Positions 656 to 29,882 of a DNA stretch of 64,000 bases are shown one piece after another. A model generated the notes under the pieces. It was not told where the DNA came from. It worked only from the letters and a program-made list of their open reading frames with translations, and did no database searches. The position numbers and the translations under genes were made by a program. Each line of letters begins with the position of its first letter. Position 1 is the stretch's first letter. This DNA comes from Chiloscyllium plagiosum (taxonomy: Eukaryota), in the NCBI RefSeq assembly GCF_004010195.1, contig NC_057719.1, forward strand, positions 27,835,458 through 27,899,457. The letters are read 5' to 3'.

Positions 656-807
656 TTAGTTGATTTGATCCAATGCTCTGAGAACTTCTTCACCCTGAAG
701 CAAGGTTCTGTTGCCTTGGATAGGTGCATTCACTTCACAGTCGTAATTGGTGAGTGTTGGCAAGCTACTGCTCTCTGCTGAGTGAGTGAGAAGCCTTGAC
801 ACTATAT
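656..807 (-). CDS. HIF1A: HIF1A exon 15 coding part, C-TAD with N794 (human N803)
   Basis: ttcag|ATATAGTG...ATCAACTAA, 152 nt. [49 protein letters not shown]. Confidence 0.96.
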
Positions 808-1232
808 CTGAAAGTAAAAGATGACCAGAAATAAATACTCAATCAAAAATAGTTAAGAATTTTGTTTTTCAATTAGTAACTATCTTGTTATTTGCTTTAT
901 TCAATTTAACATAGCATATTCAGTTTTTGAAGTATGCAAAATGCAGTGATTAGATTCAGCAACTTGATACTCTAACCAAGATTTCTGAATTACGAGAACT
1001 AGCACTTGGATTTAAGACATTATTTTTGTCACTATATTTAAGTAATTTCTTAATGTTCCTTGCAGGACAGTTTCCACATTAAAGAAAGGTGGCTGTGCAA
1101 CCTATTTTCAAATTGCAATGATCAACAGATAATTAGATTAAATGTCCAGTCAACCTTTCAAACAAGAGATTACAGTCATACAGCATGGAATCAGACCCTT
1201 CGGTCCAACGTGTCTGCTATAACCAGATACCA

Positions 1233-1515
1233 TAGATTCCCTACAGTGTGGAAACAGGCCATTTGGCCCAACAAGTCCACACCAACCTTGAGTATCCCAC
1301 CCATACCCATTCCCCTAACCTATGCACCTAATCCACACACCCATGAATACTATGGGCAATTTAGCATAGCCAATTCACTTAACCTGCACATCTTTGGACT
1401 GTGGGAGGAAACCCACACAGACACATACAAACTCCACACAGTCAGCCGAGGCTGGAATCGAACTCTGGTCCCTGGCACTGTGAGGCAGCAGTGCTAACCA
1501 CTGGAGCTATCGTGC
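1233..1515 (-). mobile_element. HE1-type tRNA-derived V-SINE, nested in a CR1 3' tail fragment (about 1168-1610)
   Basis: Reverse-complement match to the SINE at 4653-4948. Confidence 0.8.
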
Positions 1516-1789
1516 ATATATCCTTGACTGATCTAGTCTCATCCCCCAGCATTTGGCTCAAATCCCTCTAAAACATCCTCTTCACATAGTTACGTAGATG
1601 ACTTTTAAATGCCCTCTTTTGTTCTGGAGTGTAAAGCTGGTATCATAAATTGAATTTTACATTTTATTTGGGAGGGACAAATGAGTTAAAATCATTTTTA
1701 ATTCAGTTAATACAAGCTGATGACAGAGCAGGAGACATTGTTTACTTGATTTTAGTAAAACCTTTATTTATTAGTCTGCTGTGCAGACC

Positions 1790-2535
1790 CTTATCAAAAA
1801 GTTAGATCATGTGGGATTTAGGGTGAGCTTGCCAATCGGATGCAAAATTAATTTGATGGTAGGAGACAGAAGGTAGTTGTGGAGGTTTGTTTTTATTTTG
1901 GACTGGAGGCCTGTGACCAGTGGTTGGTATTGTATCCACTTTTGTCATGTTATATAAAATGATTTGGAAGAGAATTTTGGAAGCAGGTAGTAAGTTTGCA
2001 TTTGACACCAAAATTGTTGGCATAATGGTCAGTGAAGGTTAAGTATGATTACAAAGAGATCTTGATTAACTGAGCAAATGAGTGGCAGGTGGAGTTTAAT
2101 TTGGGTAAATGCAAGGTATTGCATTTTGGTAAAATGAACAAGTGTAGGATTTGTACAATTAATGGAAGGACCCTGGGGAACGTCGTAGAACAGATGTAGG
2201 AGTTGAGGGGTGACCTTCATAAGTGGTTTATAAAATCATGAGGGGTATAGATAAGGTGAATAGCAAAGATCTATTCCCTAATGGGGGGAAATATATGTAA
2301 GGTGCGAGCAGAAAGATTTAAGGCCGAGGGATTTTTTTTTTAGTGGTTAGTGTGTGGAATGAACTGTCAGAGGAAGAATGGATACAGGTTGAGTTACACA
2401 ATTTAAAAGCCATTTGGATAAGTACATGAAAAGAAAAGGTTTGGAGGGATTCAGTTAAAATGCAGGTAGTAGTTTAGTTTGGGATCACAGTTGGTATGGC
2501 CTAGTTGGACTGAATGGTTTGTTTCATGCTGACTA
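1790..2535 (+). mobile_element. Degenerate CR1-type LINE 3' fragment
   Basis: RT remnants (WRPVTSG, SKFA.DTK) and a 3' tail like the copy at 62798-63531. Confidence 0.75.
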
Positions 2536-2625
2536 CGAACAAGAAAGCCTTTGTCTTTTTTCACCCTGCCCCAGTATTGCAGAACAAAATACCGAGGGGG
2601 TAAAAGAAAAAAAAGTCAAACTTGC

Positions 2626-2743
2626 CAGTTGGTACCAACACGAGTGTCTTCTGTTCACTGTTACTGTCTTCCAATCCCTTTGCACGTTTCCATGTTTGTG
2701 ATGTACTCACTGGAGGGTCAGTGTCACTTTGGAATAATAATCC
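2626..2743 (-). CDS. HIF1A: HIF1A exon 14, with non-canonical GC donor
   Basis: aacag|GGATTA...CCAACTG|gcaagt, 118 nt. GLLFQSDTDPPVSTSQTWKRAKGLEDSNSEQKTLVLVPT, similar to human WKRVKG...EQKTIILIPS. This boundary gives the phase 1 needed to join exon 15. Confidence 0.85.
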
Positions 2744-4485
2744 CTGTTCAAAAGAAAAATTACTGGATTCCAGTTTAACTGTTTAATCAGCAAAATAAAA
2801 ACTGTTGGTATAATAGAAGGTTAAATATTTACATTGTTAGGTGGCTCATATCTTTCAAGTATTGAAAACACCACCTCTTGACAATTATATAACCTTATAG
2901 ATCTACAGACCATCATCAAATATGACTCTGTAGGGATTCTATTTATAGTGTAGAAACAGGCCATTCAGCCCAACAAGTCCACAACAACTCAGAGCATCCC
3001 ACCCAGTCACCTCCCCCAAAATAAACACACACAACCAATAACCCTGTATTCCCCATGGCTAATCCACCTTACCTATCACATCCCTGGACACTGAAAAAGG
3101 GTTATGATAATCCTTAATTCTTCACTGAAGTTCAAATTCTACAATAACATTTGGTGAGGTTATTTTCCAGTTTGCACATTTAATTCATACCATTTGCAAT
3201 TTACAACAAGACCAATTTGGAAGCTTTATAAAAATGGACACTATTTTGGAAAATAATCTCAAAACTGAAAATTCCAGAATTCAATATAATGAAAATTGAG
3301 GCATGGTCAATCATTACAAGTCATTGGCTTTTCCTATAGGACTGATGATTTACAAACATTAATGATCAGATATTGGCATTGCAGTAATTCTTGTCATCTG
3401 TGTAGATTGATGTACACACAAAACTAGATGCAAAATGCAGTGCAACTTCATTCGTATCCTTATGGCGACCTCACTTGAATTTATAGTAAATATTAAAAAA
3501 TGAATTAGTTATTTTGTACCCTAGTTAGGGCTCTTACAGAAATGCTTAGCAATTGCAATTGTGTGGTCATGCAGATAAGAATTTAATTTTTGAAAAATCT
3601 GTTTGGGGATGTGGGATCACTGGCTAGGTCACCATTTATTCGGTTTCCTAATTGTCCAGAGGGTAGTTTAGAGTTAACTGTATTGCAGTAGTTCTGGAGT
3701 CACAATAGTAGATTCCTTTCCCTAAAGGACATCAGTGAACCAGATGTGTTTTATGACAAACGGCAGTGATTACATGGCTACCATTAGGCTAGAGTTTTAT
3801 TCCTAGATTATTGAATTCAAATTTTTGTTTTTAAAAAACTAATGACAGGAACAATGATTGCGAGAAAGCAATAAACATAAGTGTTAAAGACAATTTGAAG
3901 TAGCTATTACAATTCTTAGAAATGCAAACTCCTTGTTACTGAATTATTACAAATTATTGCAAGCACACATCTTAAATATAGAACGCGTGTTGTGAAGTTT
4001 TAACTCAAAATAAAGCCCCACTATTGCATATTTTGTTGCAAACCTTGAACAGAGCATCACATAGCTGATTAGTTGTTTTCCAACATTGCAAAAGACTGGA
4101 AACAAAATTTAGTATGCTGAGATTCAACCATATAAAGGTGTAAAAGCCTGAACTGTACTGGAAGTGTTCTTTTAAAAAAGTATTACGTCCGAGTCTCATC
4201 AGGATTTCACTTGAGGTCAATGCAAAAACAACAGAATGACTTGATAGTTAAATCATAGTTCATTTGCCCCTGCACAATCACTTGTGCCAAAAACAGTAAT
4301 TTAATTTTTGTTTCCAATTATCACAATACACAACAGTAAAAATTCACTGTTGTTCAAGATAGAAAAGTGGTTGAGAGTCTGAGGAAGCTTGTGGGATGGA
4401 GAGTATTTTTGGTGGGATCAAGAGGCCAGGCATTGATTAGTGGGGTAACACAATGGTAAGTGCTTAGGCCCTAATTATGCATGGA

Positions 4486-4646
4486 GATCAGAGTCCAGAT
4501 TGGAGTAGTGCTGGAAAAGCACAGCAGATCAGGCAGCATCCAAGGAGTAGGAAAATAGATATTTCGGGCAAAGGCCCTTCACCCGAAATGTCTATTTTCC
4601 TGCTCCTCGGATGCTGCCTGACCCTTCTGTGCTTTTCCAGCACCAC
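4486..4646. mobile_element. Fold-back Penelope-derived short element (hammerhead core deleted), inside an L2/CR1 fragment
   Basis: Inverted arms at 4505-4568 and 4582-4646; same family as 47382-47610. Confidence 0.75.
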
Positions 4647-4652
4647 TAATGT

Positions 4653-4948
4653 GGGCGGCACGGTGGCACAGTGGTTAGCACTGTTGCTTCACAGCGCCAG
4701 AGACCCGGGTTCAATTCCCGACTCAGGCGACTGACTGTGTGGAGTTTGCACGTTCTCCCCGTGTCTGCGTGGGTTTCCTCCCACAGTCCAAAGATGTGCA
4801 GGGTCAGGTGAATTGGCCATGCTAAATTGCCCGTAGTGTTAGGTAAGGGGTAAATGTAGGGGTATGGGTGGGTTGCGCTTCGGCGGGTCAGTGTGGACTT
4901 GTTGGGCCGAAGGGCCTGTTTCCACATTGTAATGTAATCTAATCTAAT
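4653..4948 (+). mobile_element. Full-length HE1-type tRNA-derived V-SINE
   Basis: A box TGGCACAGTGG at 4664, B box GGTTCAATTCCC at 4708, CR1-like 3' tail, (TAATC)n end. CTAATGT TSD at 4646-4652 and 4949-4955. Confidence 0.9.
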
Positions 4949-5269
4949 CTAATGTTGACCCTAGCTATTCATGGTGTATATATAAGTGACCTGAATGAGG
5001 GCACAAAATGCAATATTTGCAAATTAGCTGACAGCACATAATATAGGCAGGATTGGGAGGTGAGGATGACGCAAGAAAGTTTCAAGATGATTTTAACAAG
5101 TTGTGTGGGCAAACATTTAGCAGATACATGACAGTATAGCTAAATGTAAAGCTACACACTTCAGTGTGAAAATCATAAATCTTATTTAAATAGTGATATA
5201 TTGGGAAGCCTGTTTACTTATACATCAGAGAAAGCCGACAGGCAGGTGCAGCAAGCACCTTGGAAGGAA

Positions 5270-5585
5270 GTGGCCTCATGGTATTCTCACCAGACTAATC
5301 TTGGGACCCGTGTTTGAAACCTGCCGTGGGAGATGATAGTTTTTGAATTTGTTAAAACTGTGGAGTTAAGAGCCTAACGATGACCACAAAACCTTTTGTA
5401 GATGGTTGGAAAAACCCATATAGTTCACTAAATGCCTTTTAGGGAAGGACGGTGCCATCCTTACCTCATCTGGTATGGGACTCCAGACCCACAGCAATGT
5501 GGCTGGCTCTTAACTGCCCTTAGTTAGGTCAACATTTATTGTCTAGCCCTAAGTTAGCAACACACACATTTCATGAGTGAAGAGA
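5270..5585 (+). mobile_element. Second tRNA-derived SINE family (other copies about 3596-3830 -, 16845-17110 +, 40140-40505 +)
   Basis: Copies share the core GTTCACTAATG...TTTAGGGAAGGA...CTCCAGACCCACAGCAATGTGG...CTCTTAACTGCCCT. Confidence 0.65.
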
Positions 5586-6139
5586 AAAATCAAGAAATAG
5601 ACACATTCAATTTTAAAGCATTATTGAGTATGGGAAGAAATATGGTAATGAGAGAGCAGCTATACTGACCTGAAGAACTGAATGGAAAAACACAAAACCT
5701 GAACTGCACGAGTTTTCCAGTTTCCATTTTTATGATGTCTATCTTTCAGCTAATAGACAAATGTAATTTCCTAATTCCAGCAGATATTTAGGTACAGTTA
5801 TATAACTGATGCTAGTACAAACAAAATACTTGTGATCTTTCTGCAGTTGCTGCTTACATAGAAAGATTAACTTCTATTGCTTGTGTTTCAGTTTTGGCCC
5901 ATTTTAATGACATGAGGATTGTGCAATTTCCATAAGGTTTTATACACTAAGGAATTTTTGATCATTATGCTAATTGGGCTCTACTATACAAGGGGTTCTT
6001 CAATTTCCTTTACAAAAAATGTCAATTCTTATGTTTGTCTGAGAGCATGTCCTACAGTTTAGAAAGTACTCAAACAACCTGCATTATGGTAATAGCAAAA
6101 TTTGTCCACAAGCTGCCACTGCAAAAATACACCTTCAAT

Positions 6140-7905
6140 GACGCTTCAAACAAATCCCGAAAAGATATTATGGGGGCACTGGCTGACATTCTGGCAGCAG
6201 AGTTAGCCACCGATTCCAGAAGACTGGAGTGTACCAAGTGTTGTGCCCTTATTCACGGAGGCTGCAAAGAAACACCTGGAAACTGTAGACCAGTAAGCCT
6301 AACATCTGTGCAGGTAAGTTACTTGAGAAGATTCTGAAAAAGATATACATGCATTTGGAAAGACAGGGTTTGATTAGGAGTAGTCAGCATGGCTTTTGTT
6401 TGAGAGATCATACCTCATAAGTTTATTAGAGTTCGTTGATGAAGCGACCAGAAAGATTGACGAGGGCAGGGTGGTAGATATAGTCTACATGAATTTCAGT
6501 AAGGCATTTGGTAAGATTCCACCATGGTAGGCTGTTCTGGAAGGTTAGAGCACATGGAATCCAGAGGAATCTGGGAAATTGGATACAAAATTGGCTTGTG
6601 GTAGGAAACTTGTTGGACTGGAAGCCTGTGACTAGTTTGGTGCTTCAGGAGTCGCTGCTGAGTCCATTGCAGTTTGCTATCCGTATGAATAATTTGGACA
6701 AGAATGTACAAGGTATGATCAGTAAGTTTGCAGATGATACTAAAATGGGGAATTGGGCTGCGAAATGGCTTATGGAGTTTGAGGTCTTGCATTTTGTAAA
6801 GTCAAATCAATGTAGGAGTTTCATGGTGAACGGTAGGGTCTTAAGAAGACTAGTGAAACAGAGGGACCTTGGAGTTCAAATTCACAATTCTCTGAAAGTG
6901 GAGTCACAGGTAGACAGGGCAGTGAAGGAGGCTTTTGGCCACTGGCCTTCAATCAGAGCACTGAGTATACATGTTTTAAAGTTATTCTGCAATTCTACAG
7001 GACATTAGTGAGACTGCACTTGGAGTAGTGTGTTCACTTTTGGTCACCTTTCGGAAGGATGTTATTAAACTGGAAAGAGTGCAGAAGAAATGTACAAGGA
7101 TGTTGCCAGGACTCAAGGGATTTAGTTACAGGAATTAGAGCATAGAAGAGATCTTATAGAAGTGTATAAGATCATGAGGGGCATGGATAAGGTGAATGCA
7201 TTCAGTCTCCCAGGGTTGGGGAAATTGAGGACTAGAGGGCATTAGTTTTGGCAGATGGAGTACAATGTGGAAAAGAGAGAGACTATTTTCTAAATGGGGA
7301 GAAAATTTAAAGTCTGAAGTGCAATGAGACTTGGAGTTCCATCCAGGATTCTCTCAAGGTCAACTTGCAGGTTGAGTTAAAAAGGCAAATGCAATGATGG
7401 CATTTATTTTGCGAGGACTTGAAAATAAAAGCAGTGATGTACCTCTGAGGCTCTGGTCAGACCCCATTTGGAGTAGTGTGTGCAGTTTTGGGCCAGGTCA
7501 TAGAGTATATTAAAGCCTGCGATAGATAGGTATACAGGGGATTAGGTTTCTCCCTGTAACCCTTATCAGCCACGATTGGTGGAGCAGACTCAATTGGCTG
7601 AATGGCCTTAATTTGTGCTTCTATGTCTTATGGTTTAAGGTTGGAGGGGAAAGAATAAATGGGAACCTGAGGGGCAACCAGAGAACCAAGGGTGGTAGAC
7701 ATATGGAATGAGCTGATAGCGGAAGTGATTGAGGTAGGTACATTAACATTTGAAAGGAATTTGAACAAATACATGGATAGGAAAGGTTTAGAAGGATATA
7801 GGCCAAGTGCAGGAAAATGGGGTTATAGTGTGGATGGACATTTTAGGCGGCATGCACCAATTTGGATTGAAGTGCCTGTCTCTATGCTGTTGGACTCTGA
7901 CTGGT
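6140..7905 (+). mobile_element. CR1-type LINE RT/3' fragment with nested LINE pieces
   Basis: ORFs 6035-6337 (PGNCRPVSLTSV) and 6508-7008 ([15 protein letters not shown]). Confidence 0.85.
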
Positions 7906-7959
7906 GACATGTGAAGAAGAAATCTATAGAAATTAAAGCTCACCATCTCCTATTTTTGC

Positions 7960-9950
7960 CTTCAACAGAATCACAGATCTCCAGCAGAGAAAAAGGCCCT
8001 TCAGCCCATCTAGTCTGTCTGCCAAAAACAACTACTGACTATTCTAATTTCATTTTCCAGCACTTGGCCTGTATCCTTGTATGCCGTGGCATCACAAGTG
8101 TATGCTGTAACATTTCTTACATGCAATGAAAGTTTCTGCCTCACAGGCAGATTCCCACTGTTTGAGAATGGAATAGTACAGGTTAGATGGGCTTCAGATT
8201 GATTTCACAGGTTGGTGCAACATTGAGGCCGAAGGCCCTGTACTGCACTCTAATGTTCTGTGTAAACATCCTGCTCCTTTATATTAAAATTTATGGCTCC
8301 TGGTAACTGATCCCTCACCAAGATGAAAAGTTATTTCCTTCTATACCATTGATAATTTTATACATCTCAATCATGACCCCCTCCTGCCCCTAGTTCCTTC
8401 ACAATTAGAACATGCTGTAGCCCAGGCAACATCCTGCTAAAAAAAAACTCTGCACCCTCTCCAGTGCAATCTCATCCTTCTTATACTGTGGATGCACATA
8501 ATATTCTGGCTGTGGACTAACCAAATCAATGCGCACATTAAGATTGCCCTGTTTTAAGTCACTCTTGTCTAATACCTTTTAAATAGAACTGGCATTCACT
8601 TGTAGCATTGTGGATTGTTGTAGAGAGTCAGCCATAGAGCATTTCAAGCCCTTCAGCCCACCAGGTCTATGCCGACCAATAAACTACACTAATCCCATTT
8701 ACCTACATTTTGGTCTATAGCCTACTTTGTCCAGCATTTTAAGTACTATCCAGCGAGAACCTATGCAGCCTCTCCTCCTGAGATTTTTGATCCCAGGCAA
8801 AGCCTTACCTGAAGAAGGAGCAGTGCTCTGAATGCTTGTGATTTCAAACCTGTTGGACTATAACCCGGTGTCCTATGACTTCTGACTTTATCAGGATTAA
8901 ACTCCATCTGCCATTGGTCTATCCAATTTACCAGCTAGCCAATAATCAGACAGTAGCCCAAGACCATCCTCACCACTGTCAACAACACCCCTCATTTTCA
9001 TTTCATCTGCAAACTTACAAATTAAAGTTTCTAAATTCACCTCGAAGTCCAAACACTGACTCCTGTCATACACCACTGGTCAAAGGTCTTCAATTTGCAA
9101 AACAACCCTCCTCTATCACCCCGTGCCTCCTATTTGTCAGCCAATTTTAGATGGTTTACCAACTTGCCTTGGATTCCATGGGCTCTTAACCTTTAAGATC
9201 AGACTTCAATGTGGGATGTTGTCAGAGGCCCTCTAGAAGTCCATGTGAGCCACATTGATTGTACTAAGTTCATCAATATATTTAGTCACCTTTTCAAATG
9301 ACTCAACTAAATTAAACAAATCTGCATTGCTTTTCCAAGTATTTATTGATTGTGTCCTTCAGAATTCTTTTCAATAATTTTCCTACCACAAACATCAGAA
9401 TAACTAGCCTGTAATTGCCTGGCCTATCCTTGCTGTCCCTCTTGAACAAAGGAACCACATTGTCTATCCTCCAGTTATTTGGCTCTTCACTTGTGGCCAG
9501 TGAAGTAGAAAATCTGCCAGGGTCCCAGCAATCCCCTCCCTTGCCTCCCATTATAAATCTGAAATACACTTCATAAAGCCCAGTAAAATATCTAATGCCT
9601 CCTCATCAGTCTTAACCATCCCAACTGACAAGTTGGCTAAAGGTCTTTCTCCTATGTGAATACAGAGAAGTATTAACTTAAGATCCCAACTATGTCCACT
9701 GGCTCTGTGCACAGGTTGCCCTTTCGTGTCTAATAGGTCCTGCTCTTTTCCCAGTAATCCTCCTAGTCTTAATATAAGAAATTACAAAAAGCCCTTGGTC
9801 CCATCTGCAAAGATATGGCCCCTTTTTGCCCTCCTAATTTCTTTAAGCAACCCTCTACACACTAAACATCTGACGGGCCTCCCCTGGTTTTTTTAATGCT
9901 CCAGACATATGGTTCCTTCTTTGTTCACAAAACTCGATCTCTTGAGATCC
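7960..9950 (-). mobile_element. Degenerate CR1-type LINE fragments
   Basis: ORF 9312-9569 (WRIDNVVPLFKRDSKDRPGNYRLV) plus reverse-complement 3' tails. Confidence 0.75.
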
Positions 9951-10691
9951 AGGATTCCCGGACTGTCTGTCATCACTCTGAATTCTCACTACACTACTTT
10001 TTTCAAAAGAACTTGCAACTAAGTCTAAATTTGCAAAGTGTAAGTAGCTGCTACCAGTCTATTGATATTGAAATTGGCCTTCCCTCAGTTTTGATACTTT
10101 TGCACTACCGACCATTCCCCTCTAATTTTCTTACCGACTGCAAAGGTCTGTGTGCAACAGTGACCTCTGGAAGCGGAAGTCAATGTTTTAATTGGCATGC
10201 TGACATAAATCATGTGCGCAGCTCAGATGGATGTTGCTCCCAACCTCTGATCACTGTTGAAACTCATTAACTCTCTAGCTTGAGGCTTACTTCTTTGAAG
10301 TAAGAGTAGATTTGAGCTGCAAGATCATTGTTCGCTTTCTGCGTATCTGCTTAAAAGGTGGCAGGAGGGTCAGGGAGAATACAGTGGCAAGGGGTGAAAT
10401 GAGGTGAGCGGAAGAGTTAACATATTTTTTAAAATGTACTCATTTAATACAAAATACTTAGGCTTACAGGGTATAACATTTAGTTTTTGATGGCAAATGA
10501 TCATAAAATTAAACTAAAGCTCCAAATTAGCTGCAGTGGGAAAATCTGAATCAAAGTTGTTCCATTTAAACTATACACTACACAGGTATGCAACCACCAC
10601 ATTAAGCAAGTAATTATTGTCCTGCATTCAATTCAACAATATTTTCTACACTCAGTTGGGGCTACACAATGGCATCAATTCAGTCACTGAA

Positions 10692-10819
10692 TTCCTGAAG
10701 AAGGGCTCATGCCCGAAACGTCGATTCTCCTGCTCCTTCGATGCTGCCTGACCTGCTGCGCTTTTCCAGCGACACATTTTCAGCTCTGATCTCCAGCATC
10801 TGCAGTCCTCACTTTCTCC
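10692..10819 (+). mobile_element. 128-bp Penelope-derived insertion with minimal hammerhead ribozyme core
   Basis: 17-bp TSD TCAATTCAGTCACTGAA at 10675-10691 and 10820-10836. Core CTGAAGA-A-GGGC-TCAT-GCCC-GAAA-CG-TC at 10695-10722. Confidence 0.85.
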
Positions 10820-11275
10820 TCAATTCAGTCACTGAAAAACTTAGTTGAAAGTAGGCTACTCAGCTCAGACTGATTTGACTGTGGTCTGAACTCCTTTCCT
10901 GCCTATCCCCTCGTAACCCTTGACTTTTTCATTGATCAAAAATCATTTAACTCTGTTTCAATTCAATGATCCAGACTTCACTCCTCTTTGGATAGAGAAT
11001 TCCACAGAGTAACAAAGAGAAAAAATCCTTTTCTCAGTGTTAAAGGGAAATCTGTCATTTTAAATTGTTTCCAACTCTAGACTCCCTCACAAGGAAAGCA
11101 TTTTCTTAACATCCACTGTGTCAAATTCCTCACAACTTCTACATCTTTCAATAAACTTCCCTGCCCATATTTACACAAGCATAGTTATTGAGTAACCTCC
11201 CAAAAGCTACTTACTACATATGCTGCAGTGAGATACATAGCGACTTTGTCATGGGCAATTAAAGTTAACACTTAC

Positions 11276-11393
11276 AATTCCAACTGCTTGGAAAAGGGAG
11301 GCTGCGTTTTCCAGCTTGCGTTTCCTCGGTGAGTTGTGCAAAATCAGTAATTGCGGGCTCAGCTCTTCATTTGGAGCTTCTCCTATTGCAGAT
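11276..11393 (-). CDS. HIF1A: HIF1A exon 13, C-terminal NLS
   Basis: tgaag|ATCTGCA...GGAATT|gtaagt, 118 nt. [39 protein letters not shown]. Confidence 0.9.
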
Positions 11394-11721
11394 CTTCAAG
11401 AAATCAAAATAGTTAGTGTAATCGTATTAACACAAATCCCTCCAACAGTCATACTTTAACAAAAAAAGGCTGTGTATTGGAGCACACTACATTTACTTTG
11501 ACTACACAGTGCTAGAATCCAGGCAAAGCAAAGCACACAGCTTATCAGTCAGCTTCACTTTTACGTAGGGAAATAGTTATATTTTAAAGGGCTCATTCCT
11601 ACTGAGAACTGAAATGAGATTTAACTTCATTCATAAGACCCTCAAAAAATTTATTCCACAGTGGTAAAGATTACAGTGGAGCATCAGGGTGACTGATCTT
11701 TAGAATAGCATGGAAACATCT

Positions 11722-12318
11722 TAGAGGAATCCTTATTATCCGAATGAGACGGGCGGGCATTATTTCGGATAATCAATTATTCGGTTAATCGATTCAATGC
11801 CTTTCCTCTGGGGCAAGGAGTTTTCTGTGAAGGAAATGAGACAGCTGCACACCGCGCGCGAGTCCCTGTCCCCCACCCACCCCCATCCCATCTCCGGGGC
11901 AGCCAGACTGGACACCAACAACAAGACTACTGTTGCTGTAGTTGGGACATTAGTCTCCAAATAGTAAGTGTACACACACACAACTTTTTACTGCAACTCT
12001 TTGACAGGTTCCGCCATTGCTCTGTACAGGACAATGTTGGAGAGATTATCGGGCAAGGTGGGGGGTTAGGGTACATCCCTGTGTAGAACTCCATGGAAAG
12101 TGGAGGGGGGGGGCGGGGGCGGGTGGTCACTCATTTGGAGACGGTAGCACTTCTCGGCAGCACTTCAGTAAGCAGATTTCGTTTTTAATCATTGTAAACA
12201 AAAGATGCCATCAGTGTTGCAAACACGTCTCATGTAATCTTTTTATCAGGACATGGAGATCTCCTTCGGATGATCCGATATTCGGATAATTGATACTTGG
12301 ATAGTGGAGGTTCCTCTG
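11722..12318. mobile_element. Non-autonomous Tc1/pogo (Tigger-like) DNA transposon
   Basis: Imperfect TIRs AGAGGAATCCTTATTATCCGAA / TTGGATAGTGGAGGTTCCTCTG followed by TA. Repeated TTATCCGAA subterminal motifs and retained CpGs. Confidence 0.7.
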
Positions 12319-12479
12319 TATTTGGGTATAATTAACAAATCAAAAGGGAGCACCCATGATGAACTACAGCTGGGGAAAGCATCAAATACAAAGAAATAAC
12401 ATAACTCTGCAAAGGTGAATGGCAGGTCAGATGATTGATCAGAGACAAAGAATTGCAGCCGACTGAAAAGTTTACATTG

Positions 12480-14170
12480 GGGGAAGAGAGAAGGAAGGGA
12501 AGTTAGCTAGGAATGAAAAAAATGGATAGCAAGATTTTGTACAGATACATGAAAAGGAAAAAAATTTAGGATGTTGGTTCTCCAGAAAATGAGGCACCAA
12601 CAGTAGATACAATGATGGATGAAATGAACAAATATTTTGGCTCAGTCTTCACTACAGAAAAGACAAAATTCCAGTAATAGCCATAAATCAGGAATGTAAG
12701 GGAGAGAACTTAGTGTGAAATTACAATAATGCGGGAAATGATACTGAGCAAACTGAAAGAAGCTGCAGGTCTAAATAGATTTTACCCCTCTGGTTTTAAA
12801 AGATGTTTCCACAAAGGTAGTAGGTGCATTGATAATTTTTCAAAATTCCCTTGATGCAGAAAAATGTTTTTGGTACTGGAAAACAGCAAACATAACCCCT
12901 CTAATCAAGAGGGAGCAGAGACCAGAAATGACAGGTCAGTTAGCTTGACTTCTGTCATGGGGAAAATGTTAAATTAATTATTACACAGATTATAGATGTG
13001 CCAACTGGAAAAATTCAAGGTAATAGTGAAGTCCTTACGGTTTGCTCAAAGAGAATTTGTTTAATAAATGTACTTGAGTTCTTGGAGTAACTTGCCATGG
13101 ATAAAAGGGAGCATGGGGACGTACAGAAGGATTTCCCGAAGGCATCTGATAAGGTGCCACGCCATGGTTTAGATAACTGAAAGATCCTGAATGGTCTTGG
13201 CAAGGTGGATATAGAAAGGATCTTACCTCCTGTGGGTCAACCCAGATCTAGAGAGCATTGTTTTAAAATTAGGGTAACCCTTTCAGGAACGCAGCAAATC
13301 GGGGCAGGACCTATATACTCAATGGCAGGGTTCTTTGCCAAATAAAGAGACCTCAAGGTGCAGGTTCATAGTTTTTTGAAGGTGGAGGCACGTGGGGTAG
13401 TAAAGGCAGCGTTTAGGATAGTTGTCTTTATTTTTCAGTGCATTGGCTATAGAAGTTGGGATGTCATGTTGCGACTGTACAGGACAAAGATGTGCCAGGG
13501 TTGGAGGGTTTAAGCTATAGGGAGGGCTAAATAGGATGGGGCTGTTTTCCCCTTCAGAGTCTGAGGTGGACAGGTGACTTTCTATGGTTTTTAAAATCAT
13601 GAGCATGAATAGGGTGAACAACCAAAGTCTTTTCCCTTGGGTAGAGAAATCCAAAACTAGAGGGCACAGGTTTAAGATGAGAGGGAAAAAGATTTAAAGA
13701 GACCTAAAGAGCAAACTTTTTCACACTAAACTAGTGCATGTTTGTAATCAACTGCCTGAAGAAGTGAAGGAGGTTGGTACAATTACAACATTTGAAAAAG
13801 CATTTGGGTGGATATATGAATAGGAAGGGTTTTAAGAGGAACATGGGCTAAAATATTAGTGAATGGAACTAGATTAATTTAGGATATCTGGTTGGCATGG
13901 ACAAGTTGGACTGAAGTGTTGTTCTGTGCTATACAACTGGGATGAGCATTGAGGGGCTTTGGAACTCTGTCACCACCACCTTTGAGGCAGTCATTGAATA
14001 TTTTAAAAACTAAAGTGGAGAGATTGTTAACTGGGGGAGTGAAGGATTGTCAGGGGTTAAATGGAACATGGAATTTGAAGCACAAATAGATAAACCACAA
14101 TAGTCTTGAGTGATAGAGCAGGTACAAGTGGCTAAATTGTCTACTTCTGCTTCAACTTTGCATATTGCTG
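12480..14170 (+). mobile_element. L2/CR1 LINE fragments with a nested CR1 3' end (about 13280-13940)
   Basis: Degenerate RT motifs, and a 3' tail like the one at 62798-63531. Confidence 0.7.
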
Positions 14171-14892
14171 ATGCCACAGACCAGATGGTATTTCTGCACT
14201 CATTCATGAACACCAGTCACAGCAAAAGTAGACCAGGTCAAATTAAATGTTGTAGTCTGTCTGCAACAAAAGGCTCAAAATAAATTGAGGCAGAGGAAAC
14301 TATTTAAACTCAAGCATGGAAAATAGGGCATTTTAGAAATAATGATGAAAAAATTAATGATAATATATGGGAAAAATGCAATAAGCTAACACAATTGCAC
14401 ACAATATTAACAGAAAAAGGAAATTTAAAAGATTTAGATGGCAGTCACATTTTGAACGAGACAGTTATGGAGATGCCTTGTCCCAGAATAGGAAACAGAA
14501 TACAGGACAGCAATTATTTATAGTTAATGTCCAAATAAGTCAAAACACAAAAGGGATGAACTGCAGTTTAAGCTCTTCCCCCAACCACACTGGGCTCCAT
14601 TATTTAAGAAAGAAAAGAGATTGAATAAAGTGCAATTTATGTGGACAAGCACTTTACATTTACTTGCAGTCAAAGTCAATAAGAGTCACATTTGCGCTCA
14701 TCTCAAATGTTTCACATTGTGGCTTTGGAAAGATAGGGGAGTAAATCATAACAGGATACAATCATTACAGTACTTATGGTTATACTATTGTTAAATGGGC
14801 ATTCCCTAAATAGAAAATGCTTGCAAGAGTGACCAGCACCATTGTAATCAAAGAAATATCTATGGAAATCTTAAAATTTGTAGCAACATTAC

Positions 14893-15329
14893 CTTTTGCT
14901 GTAAGCAAGCAATGCCTTCACAGGAGACAAGGAACTTTGTGGACGTGAAATATCTGTCTGCTGAGTGAGCAGTCCTTTTTGGATTCCAGTTCGGACAGGT
15001 GAAGTTGTTCTGTTGCTTTTCTTATCTTGTAATGAACTTGAGCCATTATCCCTTTCAATCGTGTGCGGGGTTGACAAAGGTTTTGTTGCAGCTGAAGACT
15101 TATCATTTTTCCCTGTGTTTTTTAAAACTGAGATGTATTTGTTGGGAGTGCCGTTAACAGATGTCCCAGCCTCTGAGAAGATGTCAATCATTGCATTCAC
15201 GTTTGGTGTACTGGTAGGGGTGGTTTGACAATCAGAAAGTGGTGAAAGTTGATCCAGTGATCGAAGCTGAAAGTCATCATCCATTGGGATGTAAGGAGCC
15301 AACATCTCCAGATCCAAGTTATCAATGTC
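14893..15329 (-). CDS. HIF1A: HIF1A exon 12, C-ODD with P555 (human P564)
   Basis: actag|GACATT...AAAAG|gtaatg, 437 nt. [30 protein letters not shown]; Pro codon at 15294-15296. Confidence 0.95.
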
Positions 15330-16261
15330 CTAGTTAAATGAATCATTACATTAACAAGTAGCCAGACATAATTAAAGACTGCATGAAAGAGGTATTCTTT
15401 TCAATTTTGGACGTAATTTATACAAGTAAATTTTGAATGTTTTAACCAAATGAATTATACTAGCAAACCAAATTCAGTTATTTTTACAATCTCTATATTT
15501 ATAGTAGAGGTTTACACAACAAATACTTAAATTATCTTAATTTTGTGCAATAAATTGCCAAACTCTAGTGAAAGGTTTGACTGAATGTAACAGGGATATT
15601 CTTATTGCAATATCATTGAAACATTTATTTAAACTGAAATGCTGTGTTATCTAGTGTCAGGGGTCATCATAGAATAATCTTTAAATTGCAAAAATTAGTG
15701 AGTTTAGTTAAAGCTGAAACAAAACTGAAAACAAATTTGATAATGGATCTGTCCTTAAGATTGTTGACATGATTAGGTGAAATGATGCAAGCTTGCCAAA
15801 CCTTTTATGGAGGCTGCATGTATTCATTTAAAATAATTTTTTTCTTTATTTTTATTCCATGGTTTGACAATGGATAAAGGGAGGCAAATAAGCTAGATCC
15901 ATAAAGTAAATGTTTATACAGCATAACGGTGTGCTGGGAGAAACAAAAATGTTTCTTTCTGACCCAATAAACTACTCAAAGTACATTCCTGTACACATTT
16001 ACCAAATACTGTAATTTTTCTGTGCCTCCCTATTTGTTCTGTATTTAACAGGTTCTTGAGCCAAAATTTACAGAACCAAATTCATATTTTATGCTGGAAA
16101 AAAACTCTAGTGTAGGGAAACATATACTATTAGGTTTCCTTATCTATATCCCAATCTGTGAGATTATTTTATTAATGCACCATGGTATAATACAGCTGAA
16201 ATCAAAAGTTGCCCTTTATATTTAATACACAAATCTCCTATGAAGAACCGTCACATCATAC

Positions 16262-16384
16262 CTGAACAGAGAATGGGTGTTTGGCCTCTGGGTCAATTGC
16301 GAAAAGCTTTTCCACTATATCCAGTTTGAAATCATTGGAAATGTCTGTGTCGACATTAAAACAGTAATCTGAAGGGCTGCTTGG
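16262..16384 (-). CDS. HIF1A: HIF1A exon 11, N-TAD start
   Basis: cacag|CCAAGC...GTTCAG|gtatga, 123 nt, symmetric phase 0. [41 protein letters not shown]. Confidence 0.95.
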
Positions 16385-17170
16385 CTGTGAAAATAAGTAA
16401 TACAATGCAGTCCAATGGTTTATTTATAAATCTAATCAGGAACTATACAGCACAGAACCGTAACTCTAAGGCTCTTGGGGGGAAGTGGTAGTTTCTTTCC
16501 CTCGGAGCCACAAACCCTGGGTTCCACATCCCATCTGCTCCAAAAGGTATTTAATAACAGATCTCAATGGGTTAGAAAATATCTACGGCCTAAACTTTAA
16601 AATTCAAATATGGACTTTTTCTGTTGCAGTGAGGGCAACAAATTGTTGGGCTTTGTGCTACTTTCCTAATGCTGCCATCCAGCTCTTCATAATTGCCAAG
16701 TTAATACTCGCAGTAAGGGGGAGGTTTAAAAGAATGCAATCAACCCTGCCCTCATATATTCATTTCATTGCAAGCATGAAGGTACAGCACACACCAAAGG
16801 CTACAGACTTTTATAATTTAAGGATAGACAATTACATGGTGGTAATGTTATTTACAGGGCTAGACTAATGCTCTGGTGACATAGGTTCAAATGACAATGA
16901 ATCACAATAATGGTGACCATGAAATCATCATTGATTATCATAAAATCAGGTTCACTAATATTCTGTGGGGGCAAAACAACTACCACTTTTATCTGGTCCA
17001 GTCTATGTGATTCTAAATCCATAGAAACAGTAAAGCAAGGCTCCCAATTCAAGGGCAATTAGGGATGGAAATAAATGATGGCCTTGAGTGATGTACACAT
17101 CCCATGACAACTTTTAAAAATTGATGTTAAAAAACTGAGTTGTTTTACAAACATTTAATAAGAGACTTAC

Positions 17171-17442
17171 TTGCGGTGAATTCTGACTGGTGCAAGGACA
17201 GGAAGAGCTGTTTGACTGCTCATTCATTTGTGGAATGGCAAATGAAAATTCCATTGACTCTTGATTTGTTTCAAGCTTGATGATGGATTCCAAATTCAAG
17301 GCTGGGTCTGTGCTACTGCATAGTGGCTTTTTTGCATCAGATGGAGGCAGAGGTGACAGTGCTATGTCTACAGTCTTCTGGTTTGTGGAGGAGGGCAACA
17401 TAACATCATTGTAGAGTGGGACCTCATTAAACTGCTGCATTT
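17171..17442 (-). CDS. HIF1A: HIF1A exon 10, ODD
   Basis: ttcag|AAATGCAG...CCGCAA|gtaagt, 272 nt. EVPLYNDVMLPSS...LSPLP...DPALN. Confidence 0.92.
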
Positions 17443-19493
17443 CTGAATTCAAAAAAAGTTAATTTTACAATCTTATTGAGTCTATAAATTCTTATTCATC
17501 CTGTCAACAACCAAGTTCTCAAATCTGAACAAACTAAATCCTGACTGTAGTCTCGTGAATTTGAAGCTAATTAAAATGACACAATGATGAAAAAGCAATT
17601 TAGAATACACATCCCTTTAAGTTGAATACTGTGAATCTGAACGTAAAGCTCTTTCACTATTCCTTCATTAAGTATTGATCCTTCAACCAAAATAATTAAT
17701 CAATCATCTGGCCATTATTGCTCTGAGATCTTGCTTGACTACCAATTTTTCTTGAAGTTAAACTGCTATTGTAAACTAAGAACAGTGCATATGAATAGTG
17801 CCTTTATATCTCTGGAGGTCATGAAATTTGCAATAAATGCAAATTTTCTTTCATTCAATATCTTTACAATATAGTTGAAGGGCACTAACTGGTTTCCAGT
17901 TTGAATAAGATTTTCATTCATCAAGTTTAATCCTGTAGAGATGTTCTGCTAGTTTGGGACTTCTGAATTGGGAAAAGCTTTGGGAACACTTGAAATTTCC
18001 CATGGCTCCACTGTAGAAATTATAAGTACATACTTTCTATAACCTATATTCAACTTTACAGAAGCTAGCAGATTTGTGGCCAATGAAGCAAAAAGGTGTG
18101 AATGCAAAGGAAAGTAGGACATACGCCAAATGAGAGAAATAGAACTGAACATGAGAACCAAAAGTACAAATTAAAAAATATTAAAAAGCACTGAAGAAAA
18201 ACAGGATGAAAATCTTCTTTCAATCCTTCTCAGCTCTGCATGCAAGCTGGGACAGCAGTTATTAACTGGATGTTTTTCCATGATAATCAAACCCAATCTC
18301 ATTCTCAAATTTAAAACTAAACATTTCTATCAAGGCTTACTAAATAGTATCTACAAGGATGAAGCTTTTCTTCTTCACACCATGAAGCTAATTCAGCAAA
18401 AACTAGATATTTGACCTTTCAAACACACAGGCCTCGTCATTTATTTGCTACCAGAAATATCATTTTTTGATTTGTCAGTATGGTTTGTACCTCAATTGCT
18501 GCACCCTCAAAAGTTCAATCTTGCTCCCTGTTCCATCATGAATAAACATCAGGTCATGTTGCATACACATACCAAAGGTGTCCAGCTTTTCCCCTCTATT
18601 TACCATGCTAAAGACTACAACTGTTAACTCTTCAGGCTGATCTCTCAGGCATAAGGTTTGAATGAGCTGAATAGCCCTCTGTTTAATAATGCTAATCTTG
18701 TCCCAGTTTTACTCAATTTCATGCCTTAGCTAAATTTAATCATTTAACTGTTTCTTGCAGGTCAATTTTAATGGTGAGCAGAATTGTGGTTTCCCATCAT
18801 GGCACGTTTAATGCTGCGCAGATTCTCAAAGTACTTGTCATTTCACGCTGAACATCTTCAATGCTGTCACCAATGTTAAGATCTACGCTGACAAACCTTT
18901 AGTCCAATTCATCCACCACGATGTTATATTTAATTTGCCTTAATACTCTATTCCTACTCACTCTCATCTGTTTCTCAACACACCTAACTGAATTTCCTTT
19001 TGAAGGTCTTTTTCTACCAAATCCCAGGAACCTGCTTTATCCCTCCTGATATGTATTCAACTCTAATTTCAGTTAGTTTCTTAATTTATCACACTTCTGA
19101 TGGGCAATCACAACAACAGATTTGAGCCATTACAATCCAGCACTCTGGAACGTTATCCCAACGCTCCTGCAATGTATCCTTCACCACTTTCAGAGGCCAA
19201 TGCAAAACTTACTACTTCAAATTATCCTTCCTAAGGCTGATTATTATTAGTGGTCAATTTCTAATCCCTCTCACAACATAACACTGGGATATTTCACTCT
19301 ATTCAAAGGTGCTATACAAATGCAAGTTGTTAATAATTGCTCGTTTTGTTTCTTCAGACACCGATAAAAGTGTGTTATAATACCTTGGAATTTGAACTAG
19401 ATTCCAAGGTAAGTTTTTTGCAAACACAGTGACTCTTGCAGACATATAGACATGAAACATTCATTAATATGACGCATAGCAACAATTTCCAAC

Positions 19494-19705
19494 CTGAGGG
19501 GCTGAAATCCAGTGAGACAACTGTATCACCAGCAGCTGGTGCAAGTTGAGTTAAAGCCTCTGGTTCCTCTTTCAGTTTGTCAAAAAGGTTATTGGTCTCT
19601 TCATTTGTGGATGAAACAGGATGCTTACTAGGTTCCTCAGGTTTCTCGACAGGTACACATTCAATCTGATCCAGTGAAAGAATCACTTCTTTTTCAACTA
19701 AACCA
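19494..19705 (-). CDS. HIF1A: HIF1A exon 9, N-ODD with hydroxylation target P397 (human P402)
   Basis: ctcag|TGGTTTA...CCCTCAG|gttgga, 212 nt. LFDKLKEEPEALTQLAPAAGDTVVSLDF; Pro codon at 19537-19539. The donor is weak but phase-consistent with exon 10. Confidence 0.9.
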
Positions 19706-19889
19706 CTGAGGGTGGAATAAAAACAGGACAAGTTACCCCCAACAGCCTCATAGAAGATTTCACTAGGTTGGTGCATGTGCAATCACATGTACAATATATA
19801 TTATTGATTATGCAAATGTTATACAAGTTATTTAATTATAATGTGTTAATACTTTCAAAATACATACAAGATCCCCATTAGACACTTAC

Positions 19890-20037
19890 CTCAAAACATA
19901 GTTCACACAGACTATGCACTGAGGCTGGGAGTTTTTGCTGTTGTAGATCACAGTGGCCTGTGTCTCCACCCAAACATAGCCACCTTCTTTGCCCAGCATC
20001 CTGTACTGACCAGTTGTGGCCTGACCTTTAGTAAATA
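19890..20037 (-). CDS. HIF1A: HIF1A exon 8, PAC
   Basis: tttag|TATTT...TTGAG|gtaagt, 148 nt. [48 protein letters not shown]. Confidence 0.95.
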
Positions 20038-20239
20038 CTAAAGCAAGCAAAGTATAAAAAAAGTATTAATTATTATTTATAAGCAGAGCATTTTCAGCTA
20101 AGACTAGCACTTCACAATAGGGAGCACAGACAAGTTACATGTTTATACAGTGCAGTACTCATTAAAGGGAGAGCAAGTACTCAAATGCCACGCATGGAAT
20201 GCTACTAGAAGCCTAAGTGTGCAGCATCAGACTCCACTA

Positions 20240-20497
<258 letters not shown>

Positions 20498-21159
20498 TTA
20501 TATATGCACACAGTAAAAAAAAAAAATCAATTGATGTTCACTATGAAACTGTTATGATGTAAAATAAAGTGCATTTCTTTCATCCATTGTCAGGTTAGAC
20601 ATACTGATCAGAACTTTCTAAGATTAGACTGAGGGAGCATAATTTTTTTTTCAATCAGCGTGTGAATCTATAATTTCAGAATTTACATTCAAAACAATGA
20701 AGACTTTGAGAGAAGGGAAGACTGTTACAAATTATAAAAACTAAGTATTTTCTCCTTCAGCTAGCTCAAGTACTTTAGGAGATTAGTTTTACCTAAATTA
20801 CCTTAGATTTGTTCGTACAAAAGGCTTTATAAAGCTATACAATATGGTACTTTTCTATTCTTCTCCAAATGTTAAGTTTTTAAAAAACAAAACAGCTGAA
20901 AGTATCATTAAATTCCACAACTTTGACTGACAGTTACAGGAGTTTTACTGCTCATGGCACATACAGATGAATAATGAGACAAAGAAGGAAAAACTGTTCA
21001 GGTATGCAATATTTTCACCTAAATTCAATTTCTACTGAAAAATGCAGTTTCAAATCTTATAATTTAGTAGCACGTGCTTAGTGTAATAATATGCAAACAT
21101 AAATGTGCAGGGTTTTACTCCAACATCAGCAATTTTTTGGATATAATTGCTGGCCAAGT

Positions 21160-21490
21160 TGGCAGCATTATCTAGTCAGAAGGCTAAGGGTTCCAAGTTC
21201 CAGTAACTTAGACAAACATCTGCGTGTCACTCCAGTGCAGTACTCCATGGTGCCTTCTTTCAGAAGTGACATTAAACTAAGGCTCCAGGTTCAACTAAAA
21301 GATCTAACAGCATAGGCTCAAATAAAATGACTGAAGTTATCCCAACTGTCCTTTTTCAATAAGTACCTCAAAAAAAAAATGTGAAAAGATTCACTTATTT
21401 GCTACATTTCCTATAACAATGACTACATTTATAATACATTATTACTAATAAAGCATGGGATGTGGTGCTACATAAACTCAAGTCTCCTTT
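21160..21490 (+). mobile_element. Degenerate DeuSINE-like element
   Basis: CACTCCAGTGCAGTACT...GGTGCC..CTTTC.GA...GACATTAAAC resembles the Deu core as I recall it. Confidence 0.5.
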
Positions 21491-22279
21491 AGAATATGCT
21501 TAAGATTTATGGAGAGGACTTAAAAGTGTTAATTTATGAAACAAACTCATTATGTAAAGTGCATATATTTCAGTCCAATGTATAATTCAGTATACAAGTT
21601 TGAAGAGAAATGAATGCAAGTTAAGTTTTTAAATTCTTCAATGGTTATATAACGATACATCAGTTATTTTGTTGAATACAATTAAGTGAATCAGTTTAAA
21701 GCACTCTCCACCTCTACTAACTCATGTGAGAAACAAGCGAATCACCCAAAAACTTACAGAAACAAACTAAAGTAGAAGTCAGGTTTTGATTTTTTGGATA
21801 ATTATTTTTGGAATAATTAGAGACATCGGATAATTGCTGTCTTACTAATTTTAAGCACAGAAATTGTGCGCTACAAGCTCAAAGAAAATATTATAAGCAA
21901 GAGATTGTATTTTCTTCAAAATACCAGTTAGGCTTACAGCAAACTGTTGCCAAGCCAAGAAACCAGATTTAACAAAACATTAGAATAAGTCTTGCCTTTT
22001 CAGCGAAATTAATTTTAAACAGTTTTAACTAATTGCTTTTTGATATTCATCCTTTTGCGTTCCAAATAGTATTTTCATTGAGAAATTATTTTTCTTGTTA
22101 CTACTTTCTTTTTTTCTCTACAGAGAAAAAAAATCTTTATCAGGAGAGAATTTGGGGCATATCTGAATTGTTCACATTAAGACCTTGATAAAGTTTAATT
22201 GAACAATAGGTTTTTACCCCATCAGACAGAAAAACTTAAAATGTAGAATGGAAAATGTTTCCAATGTCACACAACTCAC

Positions 22280-22482
22280 CTCTCATCACAATAAGAAAAC
22301 TTCATATCCAGGCTATGACGACTCAGAAATGTCTTGCTATCCAGTGGTACCTCTATGTTGGAGGGGTGTGGAATAGGTTCACAGATCAAAATCAGACAGG
22401 TCATGGGTGGCTCTTTGTAACCACAATGGGTCTGCTCATTACTGGATTTGTATACTCTAATATGTCCTGTGCAATGTAGGAC
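22280..22482 (-). CDS. HIF1A: HIF1A exon 6, PAS-A end / PAS-B start
   Basis: tttag|GTCCTA...GAGAG|gtgagt, 203 nt. [11 protein letters not shown]...[34 protein letters not shown]. Confidence 0.95.
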
Positions 22483-23109
22483 CTAAAGATGATAATGAAA
22501 GTTAGTTTTTGTAGTTCCCAGGGTTTTAAGCACCCCATTAACTAAGTAATTTAGTAACATTTGTGAAGCAGATTACAATATGTCTTGATCAGAATTTTTG
22601 CTTGTCAGTAAGAACCTTCTTTTAAAAAAACAAAAGAAACTTGTTGCTTCCTATACAAGAACTACTAAGATCCTCTCTTTAACTCTAATGTCATAGAACT
22701 TAGATCAGTCTGTATCAGTTCATGAAGTTCTTAGGCAGTTTTAGGGAAGCAGTAACTCTTCACATACGAGGAAATATCAACTTAACCCCAGCATCTGCTA
22801 TAGAATCTCTTCCACCAGCTCATCAAGTAATAATTGTTCTTGACATTTCAAGGCGAAGGAATACTTTCAACTCATTCCTAACTTAGACAAATCAATGAAC
22901 TGGATTTTACTTTGTCAAATCACTACATTGTTTATTCAGAAAATGAATTCCTAACCTCACTTGTTACTTTTCAGCAAGGGACATTAAATAATAACCAAGA
23001 GTCAATCTTGGGTAATTTTCATTCCTTGATGTCTTAAACAATCAAAATAATGGTAGAGTTTTACAATTTGCTCATCTGAAACCAGAGATTAAAATCCAGT
23101 TTAGGAATT

Positions 23110-24665: not shown

Positions 24666-25783
24666 ATTTCAATTGTTGGTAAATGGGATTAGGTTTAAGG
24701 TCAGGTGGTTCTCATGTGAATTGTTCTGAAGAAGTGTCACTGAACTGGAAACATTAATTGTACTTTCCTTCCACAGATGCTTCCAGACCTCACTCTCCCA
24801 CCACAATTTCTGTCTAAACGTGATTACTGGAAACAAAAACATCGCTGAAGTACCTCTGATTCTGAAGTTTGAACTCTTGGTTCTACTTAATAAAACTTCC
24901 AATCCAATTAGCCACCATGCTAGGCAAACAGAACTGGTCAAGAAGCCTTTGTTACTGCCTATCCTCCATTGTAGATCTAGTGTTCAATAGCCAAACAGCT
25001 CTGTTGATTATTTCTTTACATTGAAAGGCATGCTCAGCATCTAGTCTGCTAGAATTCAGAGATCTCCACTTTTCTCAAGGTCAACTAGGGATGGACAAAA
25101 AATGCTGGCCAGCCAGCAATGCCCATATCTCACTAATGAATAATAAAAAAGTCCCTTCCAAAGATACAGCAACATCATGCCTGTTTGTCAGAATTTTCCC
25201 ACAATGTGCAAACTTTACATTTGGCTTCATTATATTTCATGAGATCATTTTGCCCAAATACTTTCTGCAATTTGTTACATTTTACAATATCACATCTTAC
25301 TCCCATCAACTAATTTTCTTTTTTACCCATAGAATTTAGTTTCAGAACTTTGAATTTAAATTATAGCTTCTCGTCCAATAGTCTGTCAATCATTTTTTGC
25401 ATCACAAGGTCTACAATATAATGGGCTTACCACTTTCTCAAAGAAAGCAGGATCTGAACTACACAACATTTCAAGTCAGAGTAAGTCAAAGATTAAATGA
25501 AAGACAGGGACAACATATGCACAGGAACACACATAACTTGGCAATATGTTGCAATCTCCCTCTACTGCTAGTTCTAAATCCTGAAGCTCCTTTCCTTGTA
25601 GCACTGTGGTCCTACCAAACATCACATGGAAAGGTGATGTTGAGCAGTCTTCCTGACCTGCGTTTGTGCAAGGGCAATGAGGGACAGACAATAAATGCAG
25701 GTCATGCCAGTGATGCTTAGATTCCATAAAAGAATAAATATTAAAAACTGTTAATTTAATGATCTTACAAACTAGCTTCTCAC

Positions 25784-25896
25784 CTTCCATGTTGCAGACT
25801 TGATATTAACAGTGCGTCCTCGGCTTGTTAAAGTACACTTCATCCTTAAGAAGAAATTGCGCTCAGTGTTCTGATCCTTCCCCTTCTTCAGAAGTC
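25784..25896 (-). CDS. HIF1A: HIF1A exon 5
   Basis: tttag|GACTT...TGGAAG|gtgaga, 113 nt. [37 protein letters not shown]. Confidence 0.95.
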
Positions 25897-29438: not shown

Positions 29439-29555
<117 letters not shown>

Positions 29556-29882
29556 TTAACAAAAGGGAAAACAAACACTAGTCACAGGTATTCAAAAATG
29601 CATCAAATACTTTTCAAAAATTGCAGTTAACATCGAGCTTCTGCATTTGTACACAGTTCGAAAAAAATTATTTAGACAAGTCTGATTTTCTAAACTTTAT
29701 TTGGCTACGGCACTGCTAAAGAGTAAAAATTGATATTCAAAATGTTAAACACTTATTCCACTAAATGAATTTAAAAGTATGACATTTTCAACTTTTGCCA
29801 TTTAGTCATCCTGCCTTTGCACTGAAAAGTATTACAAATCATATTAAACCTATTCAGAGTAGACAAATATGAACATCTTTAC

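Follow-up and report, generated by a model that had tools for sequence, protein, structure and literature searches.

The HIF1A gene of Chiloscyllium plagiosum contains a real GC-AG intron, intron 14, upstream of the exon encoding the C-TAD, and a real latent Ile-stop that would be read if exon 14 were skipped. The explanation that we favor, with a probability of about 0.6, is that intron 14 is mostly spliced to give full-length HIF-1alpha and that exon 14 is likely skipped in a few transcripts, as a by-product of an exon layout common to jawed vertebrates. On present evidence, we are dealing with an ordinary GC-AG intron that the RefSeq protein had already implied, next to a minor isoform of a known kind.

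Gene structure and the splice donor of intron 14

The window, i.e. the whole stretch of 64,000 nucleotides analyzed, carries C. plagiosum HIF1A (hif1aa) on the minus strand, to which all coordinates below refer. In a homology search, a stretch of 145 residues from exon 12 gave a 100% match to XP_043553169.1 (P0001 in our protein set), the C. plagiosum "hypoxia inducible factor 1 subunit alpha a isoform X4" of 818 aa. This protein was mapped onto the minus strand, and GT/GC..AG pairs were sought at a distance of not more than 4 nt from every protein-mapped boundary. A single solution was obtained for each of the 14 introns, 13 of them GT-AG and one GC-AG. The 15 exons (656..60602) join to a coding sequence of 2457 nt, the translation of which was identical to XP_043553169.1. 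Pfam recognized bHLH, PAS, HIF-1 (N-TAD, residues 544-572), and C-TAD (residues 781-816) in the window protein. The bHLH-PAS-PAS arrangement, the N-TAD with its HIF-1 motif, the C-TAD, the 15-exon layout, and nearest relatives named HIF-1alpha all identify the gene as an HIF1A orthologue.

Exon 13 (11276..11393, 118 nt) ends in phase 0 with residue 729 at a GT donor that matches U1 at 6/9 positions. It is followed by intron 13 (2744..11275, GT-AG, 8532 nt), whose acceptor is preceded by 11 pyrimidines in 16 positions. Exon 14 (2626..2743) is likewise 118 nt long, a number not divisible by 3; it runs from phase 0 to phase 1 and encodes residues 730-768 together with the initial base of Asp769. 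It carries a K-R-x-K motif that is nearly invariant, that we take to be part of a bipartite nuclear signal, and that would be removed by exon 14 skipping. Intron 14 (808..2625, GC-AG, 1818 nt) contains interspersed-repeat fragments and ends in a TTTCAG acceptor with a pyrimidine tract (808..832, 12/16 pyrimidines), which in the exon 15 frame reads H-L-L-L-S, then D-I-V. The coding part of exon 15 (656..807) contains the entire C-TAD (PF08778, about 772-665) with the invariant Asn795 in a C-E-V-N motif. The coding sequence ends in exon 15; 655 nt of 3' UTR lie in the window, beyond whose end a further intron may follow.

The preliminary description had placed a GC donor at the homologous, phase-compatible end of exon 14, and the exact reconstruction of the coding sequence indeed fixes CTG/GCAAGT at this position. 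Annotated proteins of C. plagiosum and of related sharks speak indirectly for a splice from 2626 to 807. Intron 14 starts with GCAAGT at 2625 and is the only one of the 14 introns to start with GC. The donor, CTG/GCAAGTTT (2618..2628, exon/intron border after CTG), agrees with the U1 core at 7/9 positions and deviates at -2 and +2, where U1 scores are plain counts of matches over nine core positions to the consensus. Among the 14 GT/GC dinucleotides between 2690 and 2561, six of which preserve the C-TAD frame, the annotated residues were obtained from donor 2626 only, and this donor also had the best U1 match near the end of exon 14. The other 13 were rejected as main donor, as they matched U1 at 2-5 positions and did not give the annotated residues. 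With 12 copies of GCAAGT on the minus strand of the 64 kb, i.e. at about 2 in 10,000 positions, its presence at an exon end fixed by homology is not due to chance.

The donor had also been called weak, a label that the simple U1 count does not bear out. The 13 GT donors of the gene scored 6/9 (six donors), 7/9 (five), or 8/9 (two), and the GC donor with 7/9 is thus average for HIF1A. A mismatch at +2 costs a donor more than a plain U1 count shows, and strong GC donors usually have A at -2, the position at which the window donor has T. Weakness of the intron 14 donor is therefore plausible.

Predicted product of exon 14 skipping

Because exon 14 is 118 nt long, a direct join of exons 13 and 15 shifts the reading frame. 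Exon 13, ending at 11276 in phase 0, is then followed at 807 by ATA TAG, the first six nucleotides of exon 15 (802..807), which when entered in phase 0 read Ile-stop, just as had been described. Even if TAG were absent, a stop at codon 26 would end the shifted exon 15 frame in the window sequence. The same TAG, which occupies +4 to +6 of exon 15, could also serve as an in-frame acceptor located 6 nt downstream of the real one; no protein lacking the first two exon 15 residues was noticed among the C-termini compared.

The skip product is predicted to lack the C-TAD and to comprise 730 aa with the X4 start, or 729 aa. The earlier proposal of a 729-aa protein without C-TAD thus holds for the loss of the domain, and for the length when the 3-nt shorter form at the intron 1 acceptor is used, whereas the annotated X4 start gives 730 aa. 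This acceptor (37655-37661) has a tandem CAG-CAG and yields forms one residue apart. Pairs of this kind were seen in C. punctatum (818/817), Carcharodon (826/825), and Scyliorhinus (832/831). As judged by analogy to human HIF-1alpha827, which according to PMC2917392 has the 3 nt TAG inserted where exons 1 and 2 meet, tandem choice at the intron 1 acceptor may also be ancient. RefSeq isoforms X1/X2 and X3 start in alternative 5' coding segments inside intron 1 (60264-60133 and 37690-37659, respectively), and X6/X7 start from a short segment.

We propose the following course of events. Intron 14 would be spliced as a GC-AG intron by the ordinary U2-type machinery, and this main route would lead to the full-length protein. 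U1 would accept the GC donor because positions -3, -1, +1, and +3 to +6 match. Where exon definition of exon 14 fails, the donor of exon 13 would pair with the acceptor of exon 15, so that a small share of the transcripts would skip exon 14, as in human, and encode the 730/729-aa HIF-1alpha without C-TAD. The stop codon of this mRNA would lie downstream of the last known junction, and the transcript would therefore escape junction-dependent NMD. The protein would keep bHLH-PAS and N-TAD/ODD, and with them DNA binding, ARNT pairing, and PHD/VHL control, but it would lose Asn795 and the FIH/p300 input; the PHD/VHL, ARNT, and FIH/p300 roles of these domains are presumed from human HIF-1alpha. The C at +2 would most likely be a tolerated GT-to-GC change whose influence on skipping is small at most, rather than a regulated dial.

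On both sides of exon 14 lie related fragments of interspersed repeats, in either orientation (1242-1503, 2944-3020, and other places in introns 13-14). The copies at 1242-1318 and 2944-3020 lie in direct orientation on either side of the exon, and two arms that are 88% complementary (2943-2983 and 4892-4932) both lie upstream of it. If the intron 14 repeats (1242-1503) formed inverted pairs with intron 13, the pre-mRNA could loop at exon 14 in a way that favors skipping.

Exon 14 skip models, the immediate stop, and the donor in other vertebrates

Homology searches and cluster listings provided 350 proteins, a redundant set that includes partly listed clusters and is not a species census, with teleosts outside the sample; the isoforms in it are automatic database models. 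A full C-TAD end was present in 296 proteins. Among the 32 non-full proteins with a recognizable exon 13 end, eight had tails compatible with a frameshifted reading of exon 15 (8/350 overall). Six of these models end in a single Ile: whale shark Rhincodon typus X5 (XP_048455953.1, 729 aa), gecko Euleptes europaea X1 (XP_056707485.1), Trachypithecus, Symphalangus, Cebus, and Marmota. A one-residue Ile tail is weak evidence when taken alone, but it agrees with the human junction. In the whale-shark model (P0134), Pfam found bHLH, PAS, and HIF-1 (N-TAD) and no C-TAD. The other two models stem from the frogs Hyperolius (XP_068110522.1) and Nanorana (XP_018418129.1). Their frameshifted tails of 18 residues fit the shifted exon 15 frame at 19/19 positions, stop included, while the best of 10,000 shuffles of the Hyperolius tail fitted 6 positions. 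The C-TAD was absent from both frog models as judged by Pfam.

By hand count, a skip model was present in one of the 23 cartilaginous-fish species listed. A search for ray-finned-fish skip forms with exon 13 of gar returned the query alone (1/38 candidates). Several proteins were rejected as exon 14 skips on the basis of their tails, i.e. Latimeria X2 and X3 (0/26 and 0/2 compatible positions), Hirundo P0080 (1/22), and P0019 (0/24). The C-TAD-less tails of Latimeria P0220 and P0221 are incompatible with exon 15 and resemble alternative last exons, and those of the bird proteins P0068, P0164, and P0167 have the appearance of out-of-frame exon 14 following a skip of exon 13. A literature search, with most subscription journals outside its coverage, gave no title that deals with a skipped exon 14 in sharks or frogs. 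Exon 14 skipping is modeled on both sides of the shark/bony-vertebrate split, which points to an old origin, and we consider the skip likely to be ancient.

It appears unlikely that the GC donor is constitutive, that exon 14 is effectively never skipped in the bamboo shark, and that the Ile-stop is a coincidence of codon choice near a splice site. This possibility draws on the finding that no skip form occurs among the six C. plagiosum isoforms listed (X5 and 9 of the 24 cluster members lie outside the listing) or among the five C. punctatum, one Hemiscyllium, and four Stegostoma models listed. In addition, with the codon use of this gene a D-I-V start gives the stop in about one of five cases, and the shifted frame has its own later stop in any event. 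It is countered by the skip model of whale shark, a member of the same 90% cluster as the C. plagiosum protein, and by the general experience that automatic annotation usually misses isoforms near 1%. Of 24 sequencing runs listed, 18 contain the exon 15/3' UTR stretch; no RNA run is on record among them, and the count has no bearing on expression.

An immediate stop after skipping requires that the last two bases of the second codon of exon 15 and the first base of the third codon form a stop triplet. This is possible in 245 of the 296 full-length sequences and impossible in 51, which start with D-M-A (37), D-M-G (3), or D-T-V (10, Callorhinchus) or belong to one divergent model. D-M-A/G is found in most amphibian sequences and D-T-V in the chimaera Callorhinchus. 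The immediate stop is thus not universal in these sequences. It is also dispensable for loss of the C-TAD, because frogs lose the domain without it and the shifted frame in the window stops at codon 26 anyway. The preliminary description had suggested that the isoform switch may go back to the jawed-vertebrate ancestor. An old skip is consistent with the whale-shark, frog, gecko, and mammal models; a built-in Ile-stop as its general companion is not upheld.

The motif N-T-A followed by G is kept in shark (ATA, seen in the sequence), human (TTA, taken from a primer), and gecko (ATA, forced by the Ile-stop model). Codon use in the window HIF1A (ATA for 7/36 Ile; TTA/CTA for 17/86 Leu) puts the odds near 0.2 per lineage. 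ATA is one substitution away from the Leu, Met, Thr, and Val codons needed in the other lineages, and TAG was likely present in the jawed-vertebrate ancestor. That shark, mammals, and gecko all retain N-T-A-G hints at a stronger constraint than would be needed for a pure by-product. Even without selection on the stop, common descent together with slow change near exon edges could account for it.

Four models contain L-L-L-S-D at the exon 14/15 junction (P0135, P0136, P0138, and P0141; three from Cetorhinus and one from Mustelus asterias), and their sister isoforms have L-L-P-T-D. The end of intron 14 in the window (808-822), read in the frame of exon 15, gives H-L-L-L-S-D and thus equals the L-L-L-S-D of these models. 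Their residues at this point probably come from the end of the intron, both splice sites having been moved by the same distance, and their junctions are likely misplaced. Such a shift would fit an aligner that avoids a GC donor and hints that GC extends to two more shark orders; the models also imply conservation of the acceptor tract in three shark orders. Read-through proteins (P0214, a skate transcript product ending in P-T-G-K-C, P0022, P0241, and P0198) fit GC and GT alike and cannot separate them because both give Gly. Two scans of metagenomes for vertebrate exon 15 DNA yielded 0/599 and 0/78 confirmed pattern matches.

These junctions bear on the idea of a conserved regulated switch, in which sharks would have kept the GC donor as a means to raise or regulate skipping and thereby to adjust how much of the HIF-1alpha is C-TAD-less and FIH-independent, for example under hypoxia. 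We regard this as quite unlikely. It could appeal to the occurrence of skip models in shark as well as in bony vertebrates, to the TAG that shark, mammals, and gecko have kept although the odds were about 0.2 for each (the three are not independent), indirectly to a non-GT donor in the orders of Cetorhinus and Mustelus asterias, and to the distinct function described for a C-TAD-less Hif-1alpha isoform of locust in PMC9427102. The rarity of skip models among cartilaginous fishes (1/23 species listed) and a donor of average U1 count speak against it. So do levels in mammals as given in two articles: the human form lies about 100-fold below the main form in 82 breast samples, i.e. at about 1% (PMC2917392), and the exon 14 skip in mouse is called "completely exogenous" by authors who use it as a reporter (PMC12361575). 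With a human isoform at this level in breast tissue and a mouse isoform described as absent, the term "switch" is overstated.

A more elaborate version seems very unlikely to us. It would combine an ancestral jawed-vertebrate switch and ATA-G pair with a GC donor shared among elasmobranchs that eases condition-sensitive skipping, by which the hypoxia-tolerant bamboo and epaulette sharks would shift to an N-TAD-only, FIH-independent HIF-1alpha. A full-text search outside whose coverage most subscription journals lie gave no match for Chiloscyllium hif1a and hypoxia.

That the C at +2 (window position 2624, given here as in the assembly) is an assembly error or private variant of a GT donor is highly improbable, even though the RefSeq model was probably built on the same assembly and the read-through of skate P0214 fits GC and GT equally, since the 15 exons translate without error, the C-terminus equals that of C. 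punctatum residue for residue, positions +3 to +6 are consensus-like as expected of real GC donors, and the shifted-junction models give a hint of a non-GT donor in common with two other sharks.

Comparison with known GC-AG introns and C-TAD-less HIF-1alpha forms

Intron 14 shares with U2-type GC-AG introns a GC at +1/+2, here at the required exon end, consensus bases at +3 to +6, and an AG acceptor with a pyrimidine tract; it differs by the T at -2 in place of the usual A. According to PMC7242645, GC-AG introns account for 0.8% of introns in the coding genes of human and mouse, occur in about 10% of human coding genes, and are linked chiefly to alternative 5' sites. A single GC-AG intron in a gene with 14 introns is unremarkable. 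HIF1A gave no match in the supplement text examined for the same article (two files, 23,156 characters), where the control gene NDUFAF6 gave none either, and no paper on a GC-AG intron in HIF1A was found in full-text searches (0 matches; most subscription journals outside coverage). If a GC donor were shared by sharks at large, the effect of donor strength could be studied as a natural experiment in a lineage that tolerates hypoxia.

The bamboo-shark gene, with a skip isoform predicted from its sequence, resembles human HIF-1alpha736, the likeness noted at the outset. As reported in PMC2917392, the human form lacks exon 14, is frameshifted, and stops after Ile, and the published junction primer contains the same Ile-TAG join; loss of the C-TAD and retention of the N-TAD are likewise as predicted for the shark. 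The Ile-stop arises from an Ile codon (D-I-V) in shark and from a Leu codon (D-L-A) in human. HIF-1alpha736 corresponds to HIF1A isoform 2 (NP_851397.1), and its protein has been reported, in PMC9427102, to be detectable in normoxia and to activate the VEGF promoter. It is thus established as RNA and protein, whereas its bamboo-shark counterpart is a prediction. Now that models from shark, frog, gecko, and mammals are seen to have the skip, a comparison among them can test whether HIF-1alpha736 is functional or splicing noise.

Closest to the bamboo shark stands Rhincodon typus X5, which belongs to the same shark order and ends at exon 13 plus one Ile without C-TAD. It is an automatic model of another species, in contrast to the form deduced for C. 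plagiosum. The Hyperolius and Nanorana models show the skip and the C-TAD loss predicted for bamboo shark, but their exon 15 starts with D-M-A, which results in an 18-residue tail instead of an immediate stop. The feature shared with frogs is therefore loss of the C-TAD and not the immediate stop. Locust Hif-1alpha2 is also a splice form without C-TAD; according to PMC9427102 it arises by an alternative 3' site together with an alternative polyA site, has an independent origin, and is abundant and functionally tested. In view of the findings on human 736 and locust, a C-TAD-less form may have a function.
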